Positions 1 to 7,280 of a stretch of 7,280 nucleotides of DNA are shown one piece after another. Position 1 is the first letter of the stretch. The number at the start of each line of letters is the position of its first letter. This DNA comes from a virus. Lineage: Duplodnaviria > Heunggongvirae > Uroviricota > Caudoviricetes. The DNA lies in the IMG/VR virus record IMGVR_UViG_2541047771_000008, positions 1-7,280 of that record. One strand, written 5' to 3'. The position numbers and the translations under genes are program-made. The notes under the pieces were generated by a model. The model worked only from the letters and a program-made list of their open reading frames with translations. It was not told the DNA's origin and searched no databases.

Positions 1-1239
1 ATGAGCAGGGCAATTCATAGACTTAGCGACACTCTTTTACGAAAATTAAGCGGATCACCAACCACAAAAAACACCTTTTTTAATGATGGTGGCAACCTTA
101 GCGTAAGGCATTCAACCAATGGCCTGTTAACCTGGTATTTCACTTACAGGGCCGGAACTGGCAGGCAGGTATCACCGGAACGCCTGAGACTGGGCAACTA
201 TCCCGATCTGAGCCTGAAAGCAGCCAGAGAAAAAGCGGCACAGTGTCGCGCCTGGCTGGCGGAGGGGAAAAATCCACGCCATGAGCTTAATCACACAGTG
301 CAGGAAGCGTTAGCACCTGTAACGGTTAAGGACGCGATCACTTACTGGCTTGAGTCATACGCGAAGGAAAAGCGCACTGACCACGAATCACTGAAAAGCC
401 GGATCAATAAGCACATAATCAGCCAGATTGGTGCTATGCCGCTGGATAAATGCGAGTTACGCCACTGGCTGGCCTGTTTTGACCAGCTTGCTAAGCGTAA
501 TCCGGTATCAGCCGGCTTTTTGTTGCAGGTATGCAAGCAGGCGCTTAAGTACTGCCGTAAACGTCGCTACGCCGTCAGTAACGTTCTTGATGATATGGTC
601 GTAGGTGATGTGGGAAAAAAAGCAGAAATAAGCGAGCGAGTGCTAACAAACAAGGAGCTTGGCGAGCTACTCCGCGCACTGGATGAAAAAATTTTCCCGC
701 CGTACTACAGCGCCTTAATTCGCCTTCTGATTGTCTTTGGATGCCGTACCACTGAGCTAAGACGCTCCGAGGTTCAGGAATGGGATTTTAAAGAAATGCT
801 CTGGACTGTGCCGAAAGAACACAGCAAAACGAAGGTAGCAATATTCAGGCCAATACCGGAAGCGATCTTGCCGTTTGTCATGAAGCTGGTGGAGAAGAAC
901 AGGCACACGGGCTTATTGCTTGGAGAACTGAAAGGGCAATCATCCGTAGCAGAGTACGGAAGAACGGCACACAGACGCATTAATCAAGCCCCCTGGTCGT
1001 TGCATGACATCCGGCACACATTTACAACCATGCTGAACGATTTAGGCGTGGATCCGCATATTGTCGAGCAGCTTACCGCCCACCAGATGCCGGGGATGCA
1101 ACGAGTCTATAACCACTCCCGTTATCTTGATGCAAAACGTGATGCTCTTAATCTATGGGTAGACCGTCTCGAGCTTCTCCAGAACAATGATGAAAAAATC
1201 GTTGTTATGACCCCGCGAATTTACCCCCAAAATTCTTGA
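1..1239 (+). CDS. int: site-specific tyrosine integrase, P4-type
   Basis: Complete 412-aa ORF starting at window position 1 with stop TGA at 1237-1239. The C-terminal half carries tyrosine-recombinase signatures (LHDIRHTFTT box, RVYNHSRYLD tyrosine region, upstream conserved Arg region). Length and N-terminal domain fit P4-like integrases. The RBS and att site would lie left of the window and cannot be seen. Confidence 0.92.
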   Translation: MSRAIHRLSDTLLRKLSGSPTTKNTFFNDGGNLSVRHSTNGLLTWYFTYRAGTGRQVSPERLRLGNYPDLSLKAAREKAAQCRAWLAEGKNPRHELNHTVQEALAPVTVKDAITYWLESYAKEKRTDHESLKSRINKHIISQIGAMPLDKCELRHWLACFDQLAKRNPVSAGFLLQVCKQALKYCRKRRYAVSNVLDDMVVGDVGKKAEISERVLTNKELGELLRALDEKIFPPYYSALIRLLIVFGCRTTELRRSEVQEWDFKEMLWTVPKEHSKTKVAIFRPIPEAILPFVMKLVEKNRHTGLLLGELKGQSSVAEYGRTAHRRINQAPWSLHDIRHTFTTMLNDLGVDPHIVEQLTAHQMPGMQRVYNHSRYLDAKRDALNLWVDRLELLQNNDEKIVVMTPRIYPQNS

Positions 1240-1290
1240 CAAATTACGGCTGTTTTTTCTTTAAGAGATTACAGCCGTGAATAAATCGTA

Positions 1291-1320
1291 GAATATCGGA
1301 AAATATCTGCAAATATCTTC
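1291..1320. repeat. three tandem 10-bp phased repeats (GAATATCGGA / AAATATCTGC / AAATATCTTC) in the int-alpA spacer
   Basis: Read directly: the AATATC core recurs at exact 10-bp periodicity, placing the copies on one face of the helix. The spacer 1240-1658 is strongly AT-rich. Function (regulator, IHF or recombination-directionality binding) is inferred only. Confidence 0.4.
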
Positions 1321-1658
1321 GCTTTATATATGTCAACCATCAAAAAATTGGAATGTCTTCTTCTGAACTTTTATTCTCTGTTTCTTGATTGTTCCAACAC
1401 TTGATGGTTTATCTATTTGTTTTTAATGAGATAATTCAAGCGCAATGCCAAGTAACGACATTTTTTGTTGCATCGCTTAAAAACTCGTGACACGATTTTA
1501 AACACTAACGAGCTTCTACGAACCTTAGCGAACAAAGCCTTTAGCAAGGTTGTGTTTTTAATTTAAGAGGTGAAAAAAGAATCTAAGTAATATCCGATCT
1601 CATATATCTACAGCTAAGAGAAAAGTTTATATACGTAATTTTTTATGTAGGTTTTTGT

Positions 1659-1868
1659 ATGCGTGAAATAAATGAAGATCGCGTAATCCGTGAGGATGAA
1701 TGTCGTAAGTTAACTGGAGTGTGTCGCACTACACGCTATGAACTGGAGAAAAAAGGGAATTTCCCGTCACGCCGTAATCTGGGCGGTCGTTCTGTAGGTT
1801 GGCTGCTGTCCGAGGTTATGGAATGGGTTAAAAGCCGGGATCGCATTAATTCAGGCAAGGCAGCGTAA
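1659..1868 (+). CDS. alpA: AlpA/Vis-family helix-turn-helix regulator (prophage transcriptional activator / excision regulator)
   Basis: 69-aa ORF; the segment CRKLTGVCRTTRYELEKKGNFPSRRNLGGRSVGWLLSEVMEWV matches the AlpA family pattern (HTH followed by FP-x-P...G-x-RSV-x-W...EV-x-W). A weak AGG lies 8 nt upstream of ATG 1659. The position just after int is typical for P4-like elements and PICIs. Confidence 0.88.
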   Translation: MREINEDRVIREDECRKLTGVCRTTRYELEKKGNFPSRRNLGGRSVGWLLSEVMEWVKSRDRINSGKAA

Positions 1869-1895
1869 AGGGGAGCATATGACATATAAAACAAA

Positions 1896-1915
1896 GGCGA
1901 CCGGGGGCGGTCGCC
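1896..1915 (-). terminator. intrinsic terminator hairpin for the minus-strand mini-operon (possibly also a weak stop for alpA)
   Basis: Perfect 8-bp GC stem GGCGACCG / CGGTCGCC with loop GGGG. On the minus strand the hairpin is followed by a U-rich tract (complement of 1879-1895 gives UUUGUUUUAUAUGUCAU). On the plus strand no U-tract follows. It lies about 70 nt past the stop of the minus-strand gene ending at 1983. Confidence 0.5.
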
Positions 1916-1982
1916 AATGGATACACACTAAACTTGAACGCATCACCAACAATGCCACATTTGCGGCTGGTGGGCAATGTGA

Positions 1983-2156
1983 TCAGTCAGATTTGGTTCG
2001 TTCCAAGGTTTGCAACGAGAGCTTTTTCCTGTGCTCTTTAAGGAATTTCTCAAGAGCAAAAGCACATGGCGCGAATCTTTCTGATTCATGCTCTATCTTT
2101 CTGCGCCGTCTTTTCCGTGCCGGTGATAATGTTTTGGTCAATTCTTTATCGGTCAT
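1983..2156 (-). CDS. small highly basic protein (57 aa), unknown function
   Basis: Minus-strand ORF; the start is chosen at the second ATG (2156) because AGGA sits 7 nt upstream, whereas the ATG at 2171 has no SD. Translation MTDKELTKTLSPARKRRRRKIEHESERFAPCAFALEKFLKEHRKKLSLQTLERTKSD is K/R/E-rich and predicted helical. It sits second in an operon after the RHH gene. No family recognised by eye. Confidence 0.5.
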   Translation of the reverse strand: MTDKELTKTLSPARKRRRRKIEHESERFAPCAFALEKFLKEHRKKLSLQTLERTKSD

Positions 2157-2213
2157 TGTGTTGTCCTGCATAGCAATGCGCCGTAGTTACTCACACCACG
2201 GCGCTGGTGATGG

Positions 2214-2393
2214 TTACTCCTGCTCTTTGGCCTTGCGGCGCTGGCGGCGTTTGATCTCGCCTTTAACGGCAGTAACTATAAATTGCGCCTTGCTTTCACC
2301 TTCATCTAAATTTTTTTCTAAGTCTGCAACAACATCATGCGGGAATCTGGCATTTAACTGTTGCGACTTATTATTTGTTGAACCTGTTGCCAT
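2214..2393 (-). CDS. ribbon-helix-helix (Arc/Mnt/CopG-like) DNA-binding protein, 59 aa
   Basis: Minus-strand ORF starting at ATG 2393 with SD AGAGAGGA 7 nt upstream; the longer 117-aa version from the ORF track has an implausible N-terminus. The segment QQLNARFPHDVVADLEKNLDEGESKAQFIVTAVKGEI follows the RHH layout and resembles P22 Arc (QFNLRWPREVLDLVRKVAEENGRSVNSEIYQRV, recalled from memory): beta-strand, helix A, G-x-S turn, helix B. It is followed by a basic tail. Confidence 0.72.
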   Translation of the reverse strand: MATGSTNNKSQQLNARFPHDVVADLEKNLDEGESKAQFIVTAVKGEIKRRQRRKAKEQE

Positions 2394-2414
2394 TACTGAA
2401 TCCTCTCTAAGTTG

Positions 2415-2504
2415 GTGCGATTCAGTATACACAAAAAAAATTTCAGAGAAAGGCTTGAAGTGCGATTCACTTGCTGATAGGTTAAAAACGAATGGTGCGA
2501 TGCA
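2415..2504. promoter_or_regulatory. divergent promoter/operator region with three direct repeats GTGCGAT(T/G)CA
   Basis: Repeats at 2415-2424, 2460-2469 and 2495-2504; the third is embedded in the palindrome GGTGCGATGCACC (2494-2506). On the minus strand a near-consensus -10 TATACT (complement of 2424-2429) abuts repeat 1, just upstream of the RHH SD. On the plus strand a candidate TTGAAG (2455-2460), 17-bp spacer, TAGGTT (2478-2483) overlaps repeat 2. The promoter hexamers are weak and this is inferred. Confidence 0.4.
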
Positions 2505-2748
2505 CCAAGCAACAACGCCCCGCAGTGGTGGCACACATGCAGGGCGTCTAACCACCAACGATAGCAACAGTATCGAGGCAGCTATGAGAAATTATACCAG
2601 ACACCCGCAAGGGCGGGACTCGCACAACCTGAATAAAGCGGGTGTAAAAAACCAGTTGATCGCCACTGCAAGCCAGGGCTATGATTTATCCGCACCAGCA
2701 AAATCTGGTGCCGGGATTGGCGTCCTGGAAATGTCAAAGGCGATATAT

Positions 2749-2768
2749 GACGCGCCAGCGTCTTTTTT
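2749..2768 (+). terminator. weak intrinsic terminator-like hairpin inside the long leader
   Basis: GACGC-GCCA-GCGTC (5-bp GC stem, 4-nt loop) followed immediately by TTTTTT (2763-2768). No plus-strand ORF with a start codon ends here. It could mark the 3' end of a small RNA or an attenuation point before the Icd-like operon. The stem is short, so confidence is low. Confidence 0.3.
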
Positions 2769-2934
2769 ATCGTCCGCATTCGCTCACATCAAAGTTATGG
2801 TGGGCTGGGCGGGGGCTTCTTCGGAAGCGCCGGTTCCCTTTGACGCCGGTTACGCCAACCCCGTTCAGTCCACCGCCAGCGAAATTGGCGTTTCCTGCGG
2901 TGGAAATTCTTCACTGTCAAAGGAGGCTGCCAAC

Positions 2935-3123
2935 ATGGCTACTATCCCTACCCTTGTACATTCTCAAACCGCCTTTCTCTGGCGCTTTATCATCTTTGGC
3001 GCGTCAGACCATCAAATCATCCACGTCACCGCCTGGACGGAACGTGAAGCGCGTAACCGCTGCCCGTCCGGTTGTGTTGCTGTATTCGCCGCCCGTATTC
3101 GCCAGGGGGTGTGCCATGCCTGA
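2935..3123 (+). CDS. small Icd-like protein (62 aa; prophage cell-division-inhibitor-like), first gene of the replication operon
   Basis: ATG 2935 is preceded by a perfect SD AGGAGG (2921-2926) at 8-nt spacing. Translation MATIPTLVHSQTAFLWRFIIFGASDHQIIHVTAWTEREARNRCPSGCVAVFAARIRQGVCHA resembles the short Icd-like proteins I recall being annotated beside P4-type integrases (memory only, not searched). It is the in-frame C-terminal end of the 414-aa shadow ORF; an alternative upstream start at 2584 (GAGG SD) cannot be excluded. Confidence 0.68.
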   Translation: MATIPTLVHSQTAFLWRFIIFGASDHQIIHVTAWTEREARNRCPSGCVAVFAARIRQGVCHA

Positions 3124-3436
3124 TATGTCAAATTACCAGTACCTGATTAATCCGCATTTTAACTGTGAGCATGATATTGCTAAAAAGGTTTATTCCGCTG
3201 CGGATGGGGCTACTGACAATATATCAATGGGTATTGCGTCAATTGGTAGCCTGATGTGGCATGCGTCAGAAAATGAGGACTATGACGAAAAGGCCATGCG
3301 CATTGATATGGGTAATATCGGTTTGTTACTGGCAATGCTTGGGCAGTTTGATATTTCGTTACGGTGCACCATTGAAAATGCCACAGATGCATTAAATGCC
3401 ATAAAGAAAGCGAATACTGATTCAAATCGGGGATAA
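3116..3436 (+). CDS. hypothetical protein (106 aa)
   Basis: ATG 3116 overlaps the upstream stop (ATGCCTGA, 3116-3123), indicating translational coupling. SD AGGGGG (3104-3109) precedes it. The N-terminal 145 codons of the annotated 251-aa ORF are Pro/Arg-rich junk, so the start is trimmed to 3116. The retained part has balanced composition. No family recognised. Confidence 0.68.
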   Translation: MPDMSNYQYLINPHFNCEHDIAKKVYSAADGATDNISMGIASIGSLMWHASENEDYDEKAMRIDMGNIGLLLAMLGQFDISLRCTIENATDALNAIKKANTDSNRG

Positions 3437-3442
3437 ATAATC

Positions 3443-3742
3443 ATGAGAACATATATATCTGGCTTGACTGCCAGCGGTTATGCACACCCCAAAATTATCC
3501 CCGGCGCTATTTATCTGGATAAGAACGGTAACAGAGTAACGGTAAAAGAACTGATGTTTGACCGTGTGTATTTTATTCGTGATGGCTATTCATTTCATAG
3601 TTCGCTGAACGTGGAGATCTTTATTTGCAGATTCCGGCGGGAAATCCCGCCTTCCAGAAATAACCATGTGTCATGTATGGATGTTGATAAAAAACTACAG
3701 GAGCTGAAAAACATGATTGCCGCGTGGAGAGAGCAGAAATGA
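3443..3742 (+). CDS. hypothetical protein (99 aa), coupled to the helicase/primase gene
   Basis: ATG 3443 lies 6 nt after the upstream stop, with GGGGA upstream. Its stop TGA (3740-3742) overlaps the next start (ATGA at 3739-3742). It occupies the position held by small early genes such as epsilon in P4; that is positional analogy only, with no sequence recognition. Confidence 0.68.
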   Translation: MRTYISGLTASGYAHPKIIPGAIYLDKNGNRVTVKELMFDRVYFIRDGYSFHSSLNVEIFICRFRREIPPSRNNHVSCMDVDKKLQELKNMIAAWREQK

Positions 3743-5556
3743 AAAAAGCGCCAAATTTAAAACACCAGCCGCGTGACAAAATGACGGAAGTCATCATTTT
3801 TGCGGGTAGTAATGCGTGGGCACATGCGAAGCAGTGGCAGGAACAGGACGGGCGACTGGCTGGCGATAACGTGCCTCCTGTCTGGCTTGGAGAGCAACAA
3901 CTTGCCGAACTGGACAACCTGCAAATCGTACCGGACGGACGCTATCGCGTGCGTCTCTATCAGGCGGGGTTATTGCGTCCGGGGCTTGTTAATACCATCG
4001 GGCAGAAACTGGCAGCGGCAGGTGTCAGGGATGCTGATTATTACCCTGAAGGAATGCACAGCCAGAAACGGGAGAACTGGCGCGAATATCTGGAACGTGA
4101 ACGGGCAGAGCTGGCGGAAAAGAAAAAGGTAGTTGAACTGCCTGTAAAGAAAAAAGAGCGGGTAAAAGACGATAACGCTTCATCACTGGCGCTTAACCAG
4201 ATGGGAGCAAGTCAACGCGGCGAAGTTCTCCTGGCACATTATGGCGGTGAACTGGCGATTCATGCTGACTCTGACACTGTTCACCATTACAACGGCGTTG
4301 TATGGGAGCCAGTACAGGATAAAGAATTACAGCGAGCTATGGCACAGATTTTCATTGATGCGGAGATCAGCTATTCGCAGAACGCCATTAAATCGGCGGT
4401 CGATACCATGAAGTTAAGTTTGCCTGTTATGGGGAATACAGCCCGTAACCTGATTGGATTCAGTAACGGGGTATTTGATACCAGAACAGGTAATTTTCGG
4501 GAGCATAACAAAAACGACTGGTTGTTAATTGCCAGTGAATTACCTTTCAGCCCACCAGCAGAGGGGGAAACGCTGGCAACACATGCGCCGAATTTCTGGA
4601 AGTGGTTACGCCGTTCGGTGGCTGAGAATGACTGCAAGGCGGATCGCGTACTGGCTGCATTATTCATGGTGCTGGCGAACAGGTACGACTGGCAGTTATT
4701 CATTGAGGTAACAGGTCCAGGAGGAAGTGGTAAAAGCGTGATGGCGGAGATTTGCACCATGCTGGCGGGTAAGGCCAACACAGTATCGGCAAGCATGAAG
4801 GCGCTGGAAGATGCAAGGGAACGCGCGTTAGTGGTTGGCTTTTCGCTGATTATCATGCCGGATATGACCCGCTACGCTGGTGATGGGGCAGGAATTAAGG
4901 CCATTACAGGCGGTGACAAGGTGGCAATTGACCCGAAACACAAAGCCCCCTACTCAACGCGTATTCCGGCAGTAGTGCTGGCGGTTAACAATAACGCCAT
5001 GTCATTCAGTGACCGCAGCGGGGGGATCTCACGTCGTCGGGTGATATTCAATTTTTCGGAAGTTGTACCGGAGGACGAACGCGATCCGATGCTGGCGGAA
5101 AAAATAGAAGGTGAGCTGGCGGTAGTGATTCGCCATCTGCTTACACGGTTTGCTGACCAGGACGAAGCCAGACGCCTGTTATATGAGCAGCAGAAATCTG
5201 AAGAAGCACTGGCGATAAAGCGAGAGGGGGATTCGCTGGTGGACTTCTGCGGCTATCTCATGGCGTCGGTAATGTGTGATGGCCTGTTAGTGGGTAATGC
5301 TGAAATTGTGCCATTCAGCCCACGCAGGTATCTCTATCATGCCTATCTGGCTTATATGAGGGCACATGGGTTTGGTAAACCTGTAACACTGACGCGCTTC
5401 GGTAAAGATATGCCGGGGGCAATGGCGGAATATGGCAGGGAGTATATGAAACGGAAAACGAAGCACGGTTTGCGTTCAAACGTGACACTGACGGAGGAAT
5501 CAGAAGACTGGATGCCATCATGTGTATCGGTCACTAATGACGACAGCAAAAATTAA
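3739..5556 (+). CDS. replication protein: P4 alpha-like primase C-terminal (D5_N-like) plus SF3 helicase
   Basis: 605 aa from ATG 3739 (SD GGAGAGAG upstream; the ORF track's GTG at 3724 is a less likely start). Walker A is VTGPGGSGKS, a Walker B-like stretch is FSLIIMPDM, and motif C is VLAVNNNAMSFSDRSGG. The block upstream of the P-loop (NLIGFSNGVFDTRTG) is typical of phage/plasmid primase C-terminal regions. The matching iteron array lies immediately downstream. Confidence 0.9.
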   Translation: MKKAPNLKHQPRDKMTEVIIFAGSNAWAHAKQWQEQDGRLAGDNVPPVWLGEQQLAELDNLQIVPDGRYRVRLYQAGLLRPGLVNTIGQKLAAAGVRDADYYPEGMHSQKRENWREYLERERAELAEKKKVVELPVKKKERVKDDNASSLALNQMGASQRGEVLLAHYGGELAIHADSDTVHHYNGVVWEPVQDKELQRAMAQIFIDAEISYSQNAIKSAVDTMKLSLPVMGNTARNLIGFSNGVFDTRTGNFREHNKNDWLLIASELPFSPPAEGETLATHAPNFWKWLRRSVAENDCKADRVLAALFMVLANRYDWQLFIEVTGPGGSGKSVMAEICTMLAGKANTVSASMKALEDARERALVVGFSLIIMPDMTRYAGDGAGIKAITGGDKVAIDPKHKAPYSTRIPAVVLAVNNNAMSFSDRSGGISRRRVIFNFSEVVPEDERDPMLAEKIEGELAVVIRHLLTRFADQDEARRLLYEQQKSEEALAIKREGDSLVDFCGYLMASVMCDGLLVGNAEIVPFSPRRYLYHAYLAYMRAHGFGKPVTLTRFGKDMPGAMAEYGREYMKRKTKHGLRSNVTLTEESEDWMPSCVSVTNDDSKN

Positions 5557-5567
5557 ACTTATGGAAT

Positions 5568-5800
5568 AACTGTTCACCACTGTTCACCCTGTCATAAATA
5601 TCTTTTATATCAGTATATTATAGGGTGAACAGTTATTTATGAACTGTTCACCAAACTATTCACTGTTCACCTTTTTGATTGTTTATTGAGCTTCAAGGGT
5701 GAACAGTGGTGAACAGTTGGTGAATAGTTTTTGTGAAACTGTTCACCCCTTAACATTATGAATTAAAAGATAAAATATCAAAAGGTGAACAGGTGAAGGG
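5568..5800. repeat. replication origin (P4 ori/crr-type): iteron array of TGTTCACC octamers with AT-rich spacers
   Basis: Perfect TGTTCACC at 5571-5578, 5581-5588, 5645-5652, 5664-5671 and 5740-5747. Reverse-complement GGTGAACA at 5624-5631, 5698-5705, 5708-5715 and 5784-5791. Degenerate copies at 5719-5726 and 5792-5799. AT-rich stretches (for example 5591-5623) lie between copies. The octamer matches the type I iteron bound by P4 alpha protein as I recall it. Confidence 0.82.
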
Positions 5801-5843
5801 TTAAAACGCAAAAATTTTAATTTACTGCTGTGAGATAAAGCCT

Positions 5844-6089
5844 ATGACAGCGAAGCACACAAAAAAATCACAATCGCACGCCCTTGATTTGACGGAACAC
5901 TGGTTAAGGGTGTCGATAAAAATCATCGACCGCAACGCCGGGGAAGGATATGCGAAAGCACATCCAGAACTGATTAGCGCATTCATGACAACGGCAGCTG
6001 CAAACTTTGCCACGCTGACAGAACGGGAGATTGCCGAAGCGGAACAGGTGACAACCATCAACGTTAAAACCGGAGAGCAGACAGCATGA
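5844..6089 (+). CDS. hypothetical small protein (81 aa)
   Basis: The ORF has a weak SD (GAGAT). Its stop overlaps the SSB start (ATGA at 6086-6089), which supports it being real and co-translated with ssb. Minus-strand ORFs over the same region are Cys/Trp-rich and look like antisense artefacts. No family recognised. Confidence 0.5.
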   Translation: MTAKHTKKSQSHALDLTEHWLRVSIKIIDRNAGEGYAKAHPELISAFMTTAAANFATLTEREIAEAEQVTTINVKTGEQTA

Positions 6090-6508
6090 CAGCACAGATA
6101 GCGGCTTACGGGCGGCTGGTGGCTGACCCGCAGTTAAAGACCACCAGCAAGGGTACACAAATGACGATGGCTAGTATGGCAGTCCCCCTTCCGTGCAGCC
6201 AGGCAGATGACGGAACGGCGACGATGTGGTTATCCGTCCTGGCGTTTGGCAGACAGGCCGACGCACTGGCAAAACACCACAAAGGCGAACTGGTGAGCGT
6301 GGCGGGTAACATGCAGGTAAGCCAGTGGACAGGCCAGAACGGCGAAACGCGGCAGGGCTGGCAGGTTATCGCAGACAGCGTGATCAGTGCGCGAACAGCG
6401 CGACCGGGCGGCAAAAAAGGCCAGCAGGGGCAGGCCACTGACGCACTGAACAGGGCAAAACAACAGTCGGGGAATGATGATCCGTACGGCGATAATATAC
6501 CGTTTTAA
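6086..6508 (+). CDS. ssb: single-stranded DNA-binding protein (SSB family, OB fold with acidic C-terminal tail)
   Basis: 140 aa with SD GGAGAG 8 nt upstream. The OB-fold core aligns by eye to E. coli SSB (GRLVADPQL...WLSVLAFGRQADALAKHHKGELVSVAGNMQVSQWTGQNGETRQGWQVIADSV versus VGNLGQDPEV...[51 protein letters not shown]). A Gly/Gln-rich linker follows, and the C-terminus ...DDPYGDNIPF matches the SSB tip motif (E. coli ends DDDIPF). Confidence 0.85.
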   Translation: MTAQIAAYGRLVADPQLKTTSKGTQMTMASMAVPLPCSQADDGTATMWLSVLAFGRQADALAKHHKGELVSVAGNMQVSQWTGQNGETRQGWQVIADSVISARTARPGGKKGQQGQATDALNRAKQQSGNDDPYGDNIPF

Positions 6509-6525
6509 ATTCTGCAAACAAAAAG

Positions 6526-6554
6526 ATGCCGGAAAAAAATAGATTTTCCGGCAT
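6526..6554. terminator. perfect 11-bp hairpin, probable transcription terminator between ssb and the capsid gene
   Basis: ATGCCGGAAAA-AAATAGA-TTTTCCGGCAT at 6526-6554. A clean U-tract follows only in the minus orientation (complement of 6511-6525 gives CUUUUUGUUUG). On the plus strand the hairpin is preceded by an A-tract with no U-tract after it. It may be bidirectional or protect ssb from leftward read-through. Confidence 0.45.
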
Positions 6555-6725
6555 GCTACATAAATCCCGACCAAAGGAAGTAAATACATTAACACGAATT
6601 ATCAGCACTGAAGTTGTCACGGCATATTTTATACAACATTGCACTTGGTTGCATGTATTCGCATAGCAGACATCGGTAATAGAATATATTCACAATTATT
6701 TGTAATGAATGTAAAGAGGATGAGT

Positions 6726-7280
6726 ATGGTTGACTTATATTCGCCTACACAGCTTGTGCAGGTGGCTAATGCTGAAGATGTGCAAAAAAAATTAAATGCG
6801 TTGTTTACCAGTTTGTTTTTCACTCGCTCGGTAATGTTTGAATCGAGAGACATTATTCTTGATACGATCGACGATCCAAATATCCCGATCGCGGCGTTTT
6901 GCTCTCCTATGGTGGGCAGTAAAGTTTCACGAGATGAGGGATACGAATCAAAAACAATTCGCCCTGGCTATATGAAACCGAAAAGCAGCATTGATCCAAA
7001 TAAGTTAGCTGTGCGCCCTGCTGGTGTATCACCTGAGCAATACAATGCTTTTGGAGCGCGTAATATTAAAGTTAAACAGGCGATTGTAAATCAGGCTAAA
7101 GCTATTCGTGCACGTATTGAATGGCTTGCCGTTCAGGCAATCACAACGGGGAAAAATATCATTGAGGGCGATGGTATTGAACGTTATGAGCTGGACTGGA
7201 ATATTAAACCACAAAATATCATCACTCAGTCTGGCGGTGCTGAGTGGTCAGGTAAGGATAAAGAAGCTTTTGATCCAAAT
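6726..7280 (+). CDS. major capsid protein, lambda gpE family (5' portion; gene continues beyond the window)
   Basis: Open frame from ATG 6726 to the window end (185 codons, no stop), with SD AAGAGGA 5 nt upstream; an in-frame ATG at 6720 would give MSMVD..., mirroring the lambda E N-terminus MSMY. Recalled lambda gpE blocks match: IRPGYMKPK versus FTPGYVKPK, and NIITQSGGAEWSGKDKEAFDP versus NITQSGGTEWSKRDKSTYDP. Not in the ORF track because it has no stop in the window. Confidence 0.82.
   Translation, partial: MVDLYSPTQLVQVANAEDVQKKLNALFTSLFFTRSVMFESRDIILDTIDDPNIPIAAFCSPMVGSKVSRDEGYESKTIRPGYMKPKSSIDPNKLAVRPAGVSPEQYNAFGARNIKVKQAIVNQAKAIRARIEWLAVQAITTGKNIIEGDGIERYELDWNIKPQNIITQSGGAEWSGKDKEAFDPN

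Follow-up and report, generated by a model that had tools for sequence, protein, structure and literature searches.

The window analysed here, that is, the whole stretch of 7,280 nucleotides (positions 1 to 7,280) of the viral record IMGVR_UViG_2541047771_000008 (Caudoviricetes), carries three copies of a short repeat in the intergenic region between two divergent transcription units. On the left lies ylcI, which encodes a protein of 59 amino acids of the YlcI/YnfO family, and on the right the early operon of a phage satellite, which includes icd-like and primase genes. Judged from the position of the repeats, their conservation and their covariation with the protein, they are very probably the operators through which a YlcI-type repressor would control both its own promoter and the early operon of the satellite.

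The Repeats and the Divergent Promoters

Reading of the sequence and pattern search of the window located two exact copies of GTGCGATTCA, at 2415-2424 and 2460-2469, and a third copy with one mismatch, GTGCGATGCA, at 2495-2504. The start-to-start spacings were 45 and 35 bp, and a repeat finder returned the same three-copy family. Only one further copy with at most one mismatch was found in the 7280-bp window, at 5308 within the primase gene. When the 192-bp intergenic region was shuffled with preservation of dinucleotides, three copies (at most one mismatch) that included an exact pair were obtained in none of 2000 shuffles, and three inexact copies in five of 2000. The third copy sits within the inverted repeat GGTGC-GAT-GCACC (2494-2506), which has a 3-nt centre. 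These results bore out the original prediction, a note on this DNA that had described three GTGCGAT(T/G)CA repeats with these spacings, the last of them inside a palindrome. The comparative data presented below revealed that the true repeat unit is an 11-mer, GTG-N5-CAC, with the consensus GTGCGATTCAC, and the three 11-bp sites are referred to as O1, O2 and O3 (Table 1).

The sites were found to overlap core elements of both promoters. O1 lies on the -10 element (TATACT) of the leftward promoter of ylcI (P_L) and spans its predicted start site (~2417); the first repeat had been said to abut this element, and the placement held, but there is an overlap, which amounts to 1 nt for the 10-mer and 2 nt for the 11-mer. 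O2 starts on the last base of the -35 element (TTGAAG) of the rightward promoter (P_R) and fills its spacer, which it had been proposed to overlap; O3 occupies approximately +5 to +15 of the rightward transcript. A TG at 2475-2476 precedes the -10 element of P_R, and the expected start is at ~2490.

Both promoters were assigned on the basis of family-wide conservation, and their start sites are inferred, not mapped. Among 115 unique relatives, the -35 element of P_R reads TTGA(A/C)G (T, T, G and A in 100, 100, 97 and 97% of the sequences, respectively), the spacer measures 17 bp in 91, and the -10 element reads TAnnnT (T, A and T in 99, 97 and 99%). The block CAGTATAC, which holds the leftward -10 element, was 81-94% conserved per position in the same set, with a value of 0.93 across operator classes.

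Two other signals in this region were set aside. An inverted fourth copy at 2615-2625 (GTGCGAGTCCC, two mismatches) was rejected because it did not covary with the operator core: GGGACTCGCACAACC was unchanged in six diverged Escherichia coli relatives that have other cores. A terminator-like call on the minus strand over the O3 palindrome (2507-2493) was judged incidental, and O3 is non-palindromic in other classes.

Conservation of the Three Sites

When 5426 complete E. coli genomes were searched for distant DNA homologues of positions 2200-2700, 1593 contained one, and the annotation was YlcI/YnfO together with Icd-like in nearly every case. In six diverged E. coli relatives, the three sites stood at the same positions, and the core differed from element to element and was common to all three sites of each; the cores seen were GTGTATTTCAC, GTGGGCCACAC, CTGGAATCCAG, GTGTAAG.CAC and GTGTGTTTCA. 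The comparison was extended to 145 further loci from one-genome-per-species and viral collections. Of the loci collected, 144, from about 30 enterobacterial genera, were usable, and they yielded 107 intergenic sequences that were non-redundant and in register.

Alignment of related elements, which had been suggested as a check on the repeats, showed that the three sites are kept in position across these 107 relatives. The distance between O1 and O2 was 45 bp in 93 of them, and that between O2 and O3 was either 35 bp (55 relatives) or 22-23 bp (42 relatives). O3 was identical to O2 in 57 sequences and differed by one base in another 32, so that 89 of 107 had at most one mismatch, and O1 differed from O2 by at least one mismatch in every relative. 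The orientation of O3 relative to O2 was the same in 60 relatives and inverted in 47. In a control stretch of the same loci, the best matches had 4-6 mismatches in 105 of 107 and never fewer than three.

The information profile of the site revealed that T2, G3, C9 and A10 are invariant and that positions 4-8 are variable. Changes in the central 5 bp are concerted across the three sites and define at least 25 operator classes. The GTGCGATTCAC class, to which the window belongs, was represented by 35 unique intergenic sequences, and the lowest identity between any two of them was 57%. They came from Escherichia, Citrobacter, Morganella, Proteus, Pectobacterium, Dickeya and others; the conserved blocks within this class were exactly the three sites, the -35 and -10 elements and CAGTATAC.

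The YlcI Protein and Its Probable Fold

The window protein matched the NCBIfam model NF041551 with 63.3 bits (cut-off 30), residues 9-50 aligning with model positions 1-42. Its predicted features are a beta-strand at residues ~11-17 (QQLNARF), a G32-E33-S34 turn and a basic C-terminal tail. The turn is of the G-x-S/T/N type of ribbon-helix-helix (RHH) proteins and lies between predicted helices, with E33 invariant, G32 at least 90% conserved and S, T or N at position 34. The AlphaFold monomer (predicted local distance difference test score of 70) showed an extended N-terminus, a helix at 19-30, the G-E-S turn and a helix at 35-58, and the modelled layout resembles that of an RHH protein minus the intersubunit ribbon.

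Profile alignment with hhalign placed Q12, N14, R16 and P18 of the family on Q9, N11, R13 and P15 of the Arc repressor of phage P22, with a pairwise E-value of 7.4e-4 but a probability of 25.7%; the motif Q-x-N-x-R-x-P-x-E/D-V is common to the window protein and Arc. The Arc sequence used matched PDB entries 1arq, 1arr, 1bdt and 1par over all 53 residues with 108.7 bits, which is the score of an essentially identical sequence. In the crystal structure of Arc bound to its operator, Q9, N11 and R13 contact bases.

The other fold searches were not decisive. Alignment with Mnt was not significant (E 0.099), matches to the Pfam RHH families PSK_trans_fac and CB_ParB_C were weak and sub-threshold (E of 0.0011 or above), and a Pfam search with the window protein alone gave no match. 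A PDB sequence search with the family profile returned only a spurious match to ribosomal S20, and Foldseek gave no match against PDB. Since these searches were not decisive and the Pfam matches remained below threshold, an Arc/Mnt-like RHH dimer is regarded as the probable, not proven, form of the YlcI/YnfO protein.

Among the 120 named homologues listed, all bar one are called YlcI/YnfO or hypothetical, and one homologue cluster is additionally named 'CopG family transcriptional re…' in UniRef. No functional study of YlcI/YnfO or of these sites was found in the literature searched, although work in subscription journals may exist. Variants of YlcI of 101 amino acids, found in the viral contigs L107 and L112-L148, have an extra C-terminal helical domain.

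Covariation of the Operator Core with YlcI

Comparison of proteins and sites from the same loci revealed that residues 9-18 of YlcI predict the operator core almost one-to-one: KSQQLNARFP occurs with CGATT, KSQMTTVRIP with TATTT and KSQALKARVP with GGCCA. Mutual information with the operator was highest at residues 12 and 14 (excess of 4.15 and 3.85 bits, respectively, against 2.63 bits for the next column), and the signal landed on operator positions 4-8. K9, S10, R16 and P18 of YlcI are invariant.

Since all columns carry a phylogenetic background, locus pairs were stratified by identity over residues 19-51. Where this identity was at least 80%, the mean core distance was 0.17 mismatches for pairs sharing residues 12 and 14 and 2.22 for pairs differing in them. 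The corresponding values were 1.05 and 3.15 mismatches at 60-80% identity, and 2.14 and 3.47 at 40-60%. Together with the positional conservation, this concerted change of the core with residues 12 and 14 supports the proposal that the repeats are operators of an autoregulated RHH repressor. The evidence is indirect, and suggests that alternate beta-strand side chains would set the DNA specificity, as in the RHH superfamily.

A similar pattern might be expected if the sites were operators of some other protein, be it AlpA, a different regulator of the satellite or a factor from the helper phage or the host, with YlcI merely linked to them. Linked genes of an immunity cassette can covary without interacting, binding by YlcI is itself inferred, and AlpA is the known activator of Gram-negative phage-inducible chromosomal islands (PICIs; PMC6092414). 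AlpA was, however, uncoupled from operator class: it was absent within the 2.5-kb flank in 22 of 43 loci of the window's operator class, and copies 96-97% identical to that of the window occurred with four other classes. The open reading frame (ORF) of 62 amino acids that follows ylcI did not track operator class either, and the first rightward ORF, together with the leader before it, is near-invariant across classes (0.9-1.0 identity from 2544) and so cannot specify the class. The variable DNA block, which extends from 2304 to 2513, holds the operators and the N-terminal ~30 codons of ylcI, the latter being the sole coding sequence there. In addition, the YlcI signal peaks at alternate strand positions, 12 and 14, which align with base-contacting residues of Arc, and the occurrence of at least 25 classes in one and the same species is not something that a host factor could account for. 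We consider it unlikely that a protein other than YlcI is the one that recognizes these sites.

It is also conceivable that YlcI is the RHH antitoxin of a toxin-antitoxin operon with the 62-amino-acid ORF (2171-1983), and that the repeats only autoregulate that operon. Most loci, among them 33 of the 43 in the window's operator class, do not have that ORF, and it gave no family match; moreover, O2 and O3, the best-matching sites, lie on P_R and not on the ylcI promoter, which makes a toxin-antitoxin function very improbable. The ORF is highly basic, is located downstream of ylcI and is present in a minority of related loci.

Proposed Mechanism of Repression

According to the proposed model, a YlcI dimer would insert a two-stranded beta-ribbon into the major groove at each site. 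Residues 12 and 14 (Q and N in the window) and the invariant R16 would read the central 5 bp (CGATT), and the GTG and CAC flanks would be read by invariant residues. Dimers on O2, in the spacer beside the -35 element, and on O3 would sterically block RNA polymerase at P_R, a promoter expected to drive the leader, isrK/C4, icd, DUF4222 and primase genes. When bound to the weaker O1, at the -10 element and start of P_L, a dimer would give negative autoregulation at higher repressor concentration; O1 is expected to be occupied last because it is mismatched to O2 in all relatives. The N-terminal ~30 codons of ylcI and the operator region make up a single specificity (immunity) cassette that can be exchanged, with at least 25 versions among enterobacterial satellites.

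Several observations weigh against this model. The leftward promoter was without a convincing -35 element, and a simple consensus promoter scan of the window called neither P_L nor P_R; P_R escaped the scan because its -10 element in the window matches just three of six consensus positions. The 45- and 35-bp spacings far exceed those of classical RHH operators, where neighbouring dimers bind side by side and cooperate. Covariation between neighbours can partly reflect co-inheritance of the cassette, an effect that stratification lessens and does not remove. A further exception was the group of 101-amino-acid proteins that have the same KSQQLNARF strand and the change Q37N, whose core is GTATT and not CGATT; therefore, residues 12 and 14 are not the whole code, and residues outside the strand contribute. 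Finally, the isrK terminator, a promoter-like site at 2656-2685 and C4 separate P_R from icd and the primase gene in the window. The gating of the early replication operon that had been predicted agreed with the placement of operators on P_R, but would be less direct in the window than in most relatives: here, these intervening elements mean that operator control of the replication genes may be partial.

The Q37N variants place a site at an offset of ~46 instead of the usual O1 position, which points to another determinant of specificity close to where helix B starts, and to a different arrangement of the operators.

Genomic Context and the RNA Module

The left part of the window contains int (1-1239), alpA (1659-1868; PF05930), the 62-amino-acid ORF (minus strand) and ylcI. 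On the plus strand, the order is leader, ORF at 2584, c4-a1b1/isrK, C4 RNA, icd-like, DUF4222, primase and single-stranded DNA-binding protein (SSB) genes. The coordinates of the features are given in Table 1.

Table 1. Positions of the proposed operators and promoters and of genes and RNA elements in the window.
Feature	Position	Strand	Remarks
O1 operator, GTGCGATTCAG	2415-2425		One mismatch to O2
O2 operator, GTGCGATTCAC	2460-2470		Exact consensus
O3 operator, GTGCGATGCAC	2495-2505
Leftward (ylcI) promoter P_L, -10 TATACT	2424-2429	-	Family conservation; A/T-rich tract upstream
Rightward promoter P_R	2455-2483	+	-35 TTGAAG 2455-2460; 17-bp spacer; -10 TAGGTT 2478-2483
ylcI gene, YlcI/YnfO-family protein of 59 amino acids	2214-2393	-	NF041551 match; Shine-Dalgarno sequence GAGAGGA at 2407 to 2401
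Structured 5' leader of the rightward operon	2515-2583	+	Hairpins 2515-2547 and 2559-2575
c4-a1b1 target and isrK-like RNA	2679-2768	+	isrK 75.1 bits; c4-a1b1 43.8 bits, under the gathering score of 46.7
C4 antisense RNA	2793-2880	+	82 bits, E 1.7e-15; upstream of icd
Icd-like protein gene, 62 amino acids	2935-3123	+	
Downstream ORF of the same operon	ending 3436	+
DUF4222 gene	3443-3742	+
Primase gene	3724-5556	+

The leader begins directly after O3 and is followed by a Shine-Dalgarno sequence, GAGG (2575-2578), and the ATG of the first ORF (2584). Compensatory changes were observed in eight of its 14 base pairs among 18 diverse sequences, and no Rfam match was obtained for 2515-2583. The DNA from 2544 to 2633 showed 0.9-1.0 identity across operator classes, which is above the conservation of the coding regions.

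The original prediction had left room for the repeats being RNA-level targets of an antisense immunity RNA of the C4/CI type, and the operon does contain a C4 RNA and an isrK/a1b1 element; in P1 and P4, RNAs of this type are known to have short, repeated sequences as their targets. The C4 targets were nevertheless found elsewhere, namely in the a1b1 model match (2679-2731) and in the repeats ATTGGCGT and TGTCAAAGG, which are complementary to C4. The complement of the intergenic repeats was absent from both C4 and isrK, even when two mismatches were allowed. Furthermore, both O1 and O2 precede the rightward start site, 47 of 107 relatives have O3 in the opposite orientation, and C4 was matched in just one of 18 relatives scanned (L004), the remaining ones keeping the three sites. 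A role of the repeats as antisense-RNA targets is therefore hardly credible.

In principle, direct repeats close to a primase gene might act as replication iterons, or might be a functionless chance repeat, and we give either idea next to no credence, given a separate array at the usual PICI origin position, the covariation of the repeats with YlcI instead, and the shuffles and the conservation in 107 relatives, which exclude chance. That array comprises ~11 copies of GGTGAACAGTT in both orientations at 5568-5802, between the primase gene and the next ORF, and is likely the replication origin of the satellite.

Alongside the proposed YlcI operators, C4 is a second, RNA-based control layer, and the control of the replication genes in the window would be layered, with protein at P_R and RNA downstream. 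An intrinsic terminator of isrK is located at 2749-2762, followed by a T run. The 5' end of the isrK match (2692) comes 7 nt after the end of the promoter-like site, TTGATC-18-TATGAT (2656-2685). For Salmonella IsrK, a promoter of its own and a short terminated isoform were described (PMC4825925), and both are probable for the isrK/C4 module as well.

The motifs ATTGGCGT (2716 and 2884) and TGTCAAAGG (2732 and 2915) are each duplicated, once on either side of C4, and are complementary to the C4 segments CCTTTGAC and ACGCCAA, both within 2838-2863. These duplicated motifs resemble a1b1/a2b2 of P1, with the second pair a short way upstream of where icd starts (2935).

Near 2637 the window ceases to resemble most relatives, and beyond this point it has the a1b1/isrK-C4-icd module; in most relatives, P_R runs straight into the icd-like, DUF4222 and primase genes. 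In these relatives, an ORF starting with MRN(H/Y)T.HPQGRDSHNLNK runs on without a break into the Icd core (YIWRF...), for example at 1088-1291 of L002. In the window, that N-terminal part is ~300 bp (isrK and C4) away from the Icd core, and the frame is open from 1879 to 3123; therefore, the Prokaryotic Genome Annotation Pipeline (PGAP) calls an implausibly long 'Icd-like' coding sequence in near-identical loci (L001, 8428-9168).

The gene order of Gram-negative PICIs was found, with int, alpA, primase, SSB and origin iterons, then capsid and packaging genes in relatives. E. coli loci 98% identical to the window run on, outside it, into genes for the major capsid protein, head decoration and TerS, which identifies the element as a phage satellite of the capsid-encoding PICI type. 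The Rfam int-alpA RNA (RF02996) was detected in five related loci (L011, L020, L046, L052 and L131), ~2.1-2.6 kb from ylcI, and gave no match in the window even at E <= 1.

Comparison with Known Systems

In terms of layout, the immI region of phage P22 is the closest analogue. Arc and Mnt are small RHH proteins that read DNA through alternate residues of the beta-strand, as is proposed for the window protein, and single substitutions in the beta-strand change their specificity. The mnt gene is divergent from the operon that Mnt represses, with an operator over back-to-back promoters and autoregulation, a layout like that proposed for the window. Both P22 proteins differ in binding as tetramers to one operator of 17-21 bp composed of two adjacent half-sites, whereas the window has three separate 11-bp sites, each apparently a site for one dimer with an asymmetric core. 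The sequence similarity to Arc/Mnt is marginal (hhalign probability 26%), and the putative targets in the window are icd and replication genes, not an antirepressor.

Plasmid RHH regulators, such as omega of pSM19035, CopG and ParG, bind as dimers to short (7-13 bp) direct or inverted promoter repeats and autoregulate, as proposed here. Their repeats are contiguous and bound by cooperative adjacent dimers; in contrast, the sites in the window are spread over 90 bp and each is tied to a promoter element.

The immunity regions of P1/P7 (immI; C4 RNA-icd-ant) and P4 (CI RNA) were compared with the RNA module, since the repeats in the window are followed by c4-a1b1/isrK, C4 and icd, arranged as in P1. 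Immunity in P1/P7 and P4 differs in being RNA-RNA, acting on a1b1/a2b2 targets and not on GTGCGATTCA repeats. The P1 promoter is under the C1 repressor, whereas the promoter in the window carries the putative YlcI-type operators.

The position of ylcI is the same as that of the Stl/Rpr repressors in the Staphylococcus aureus pathogenicity islands (SaPIs) and Gram-positive PICIs, where the repressor gene is divergent from the excision/replication operon, between the int side and the primase side. Stl is a large helix-turn-helix protein without homology to YlcI, and derepression by helper-phage proteins was demonstrated for Stl. In Gram-negative PICIs, AlpA was shown to be an activator, and the global repressor was called 'unclear' in the founding paper (PMC6092414). 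A later survey noted C4/isrK immunity RNAs in this zone and left the YlcI protein unmentioned (PMC10111431), and a preprint on capsid-forming PICIs (cf-PICIs) mentions no repressor. The proposed mechanism is ordinary. The YlcI family, its operators, their many classes and the presence of the module in a model PICI appear undescribed in the literature searched.

A broader and tentative hypothesis, which we put forward with some doubt, is that YlcI/YnfO proteins could be the missing master repressors of Gram-negative PICIs and P4-like satellites, including EcCICFT073, with dozens of immunity types set largely by two residues and overcome during helper infection. The operon from icd to primase would then be held off via the three operators, through a natural RHH recognition code. 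Relief might come from antirepressors of the helper or satellite, or from AlpA-activated transcription through ylcI in antisense and across the operators.

If the operator assignment is correct, the YlcI/YnfO family, which at present bears a placeholder name, would gain a function, and Gram-negative PICIs would gain a candidate repressor that is testable in EcCICFT073 with existing strains. It would also provide a natural series of proteins with their matching operators, at least 25 pairs distinguished mainly by two residues and five base pairs, which would serve to derive rules of RHH-DNA recognition and to design orthogonal repressors.

The model Gram-negative PICI EcCICFT073, from E. coli CFT073, has the same module, with ylcI (WP_000190587.1; NC_004431.1, 1380473-1380652) divergent from Icd-like, DUF4222 and primase genes. 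Its operators, GTGGGGGACAG, GTGGGCCACAC and GTGGGCCACAC, are in the standard positions and belong to another class than those of the window. This module corresponds to 9474-9853 of locus L154 (NC_004431.1, 1380473-1380852), and its genes are tagged C_RS30120 and C_RS30125; these high numbers are out of series with the neighbouring tags, which suggests that both genes were added in a later re-annotation.

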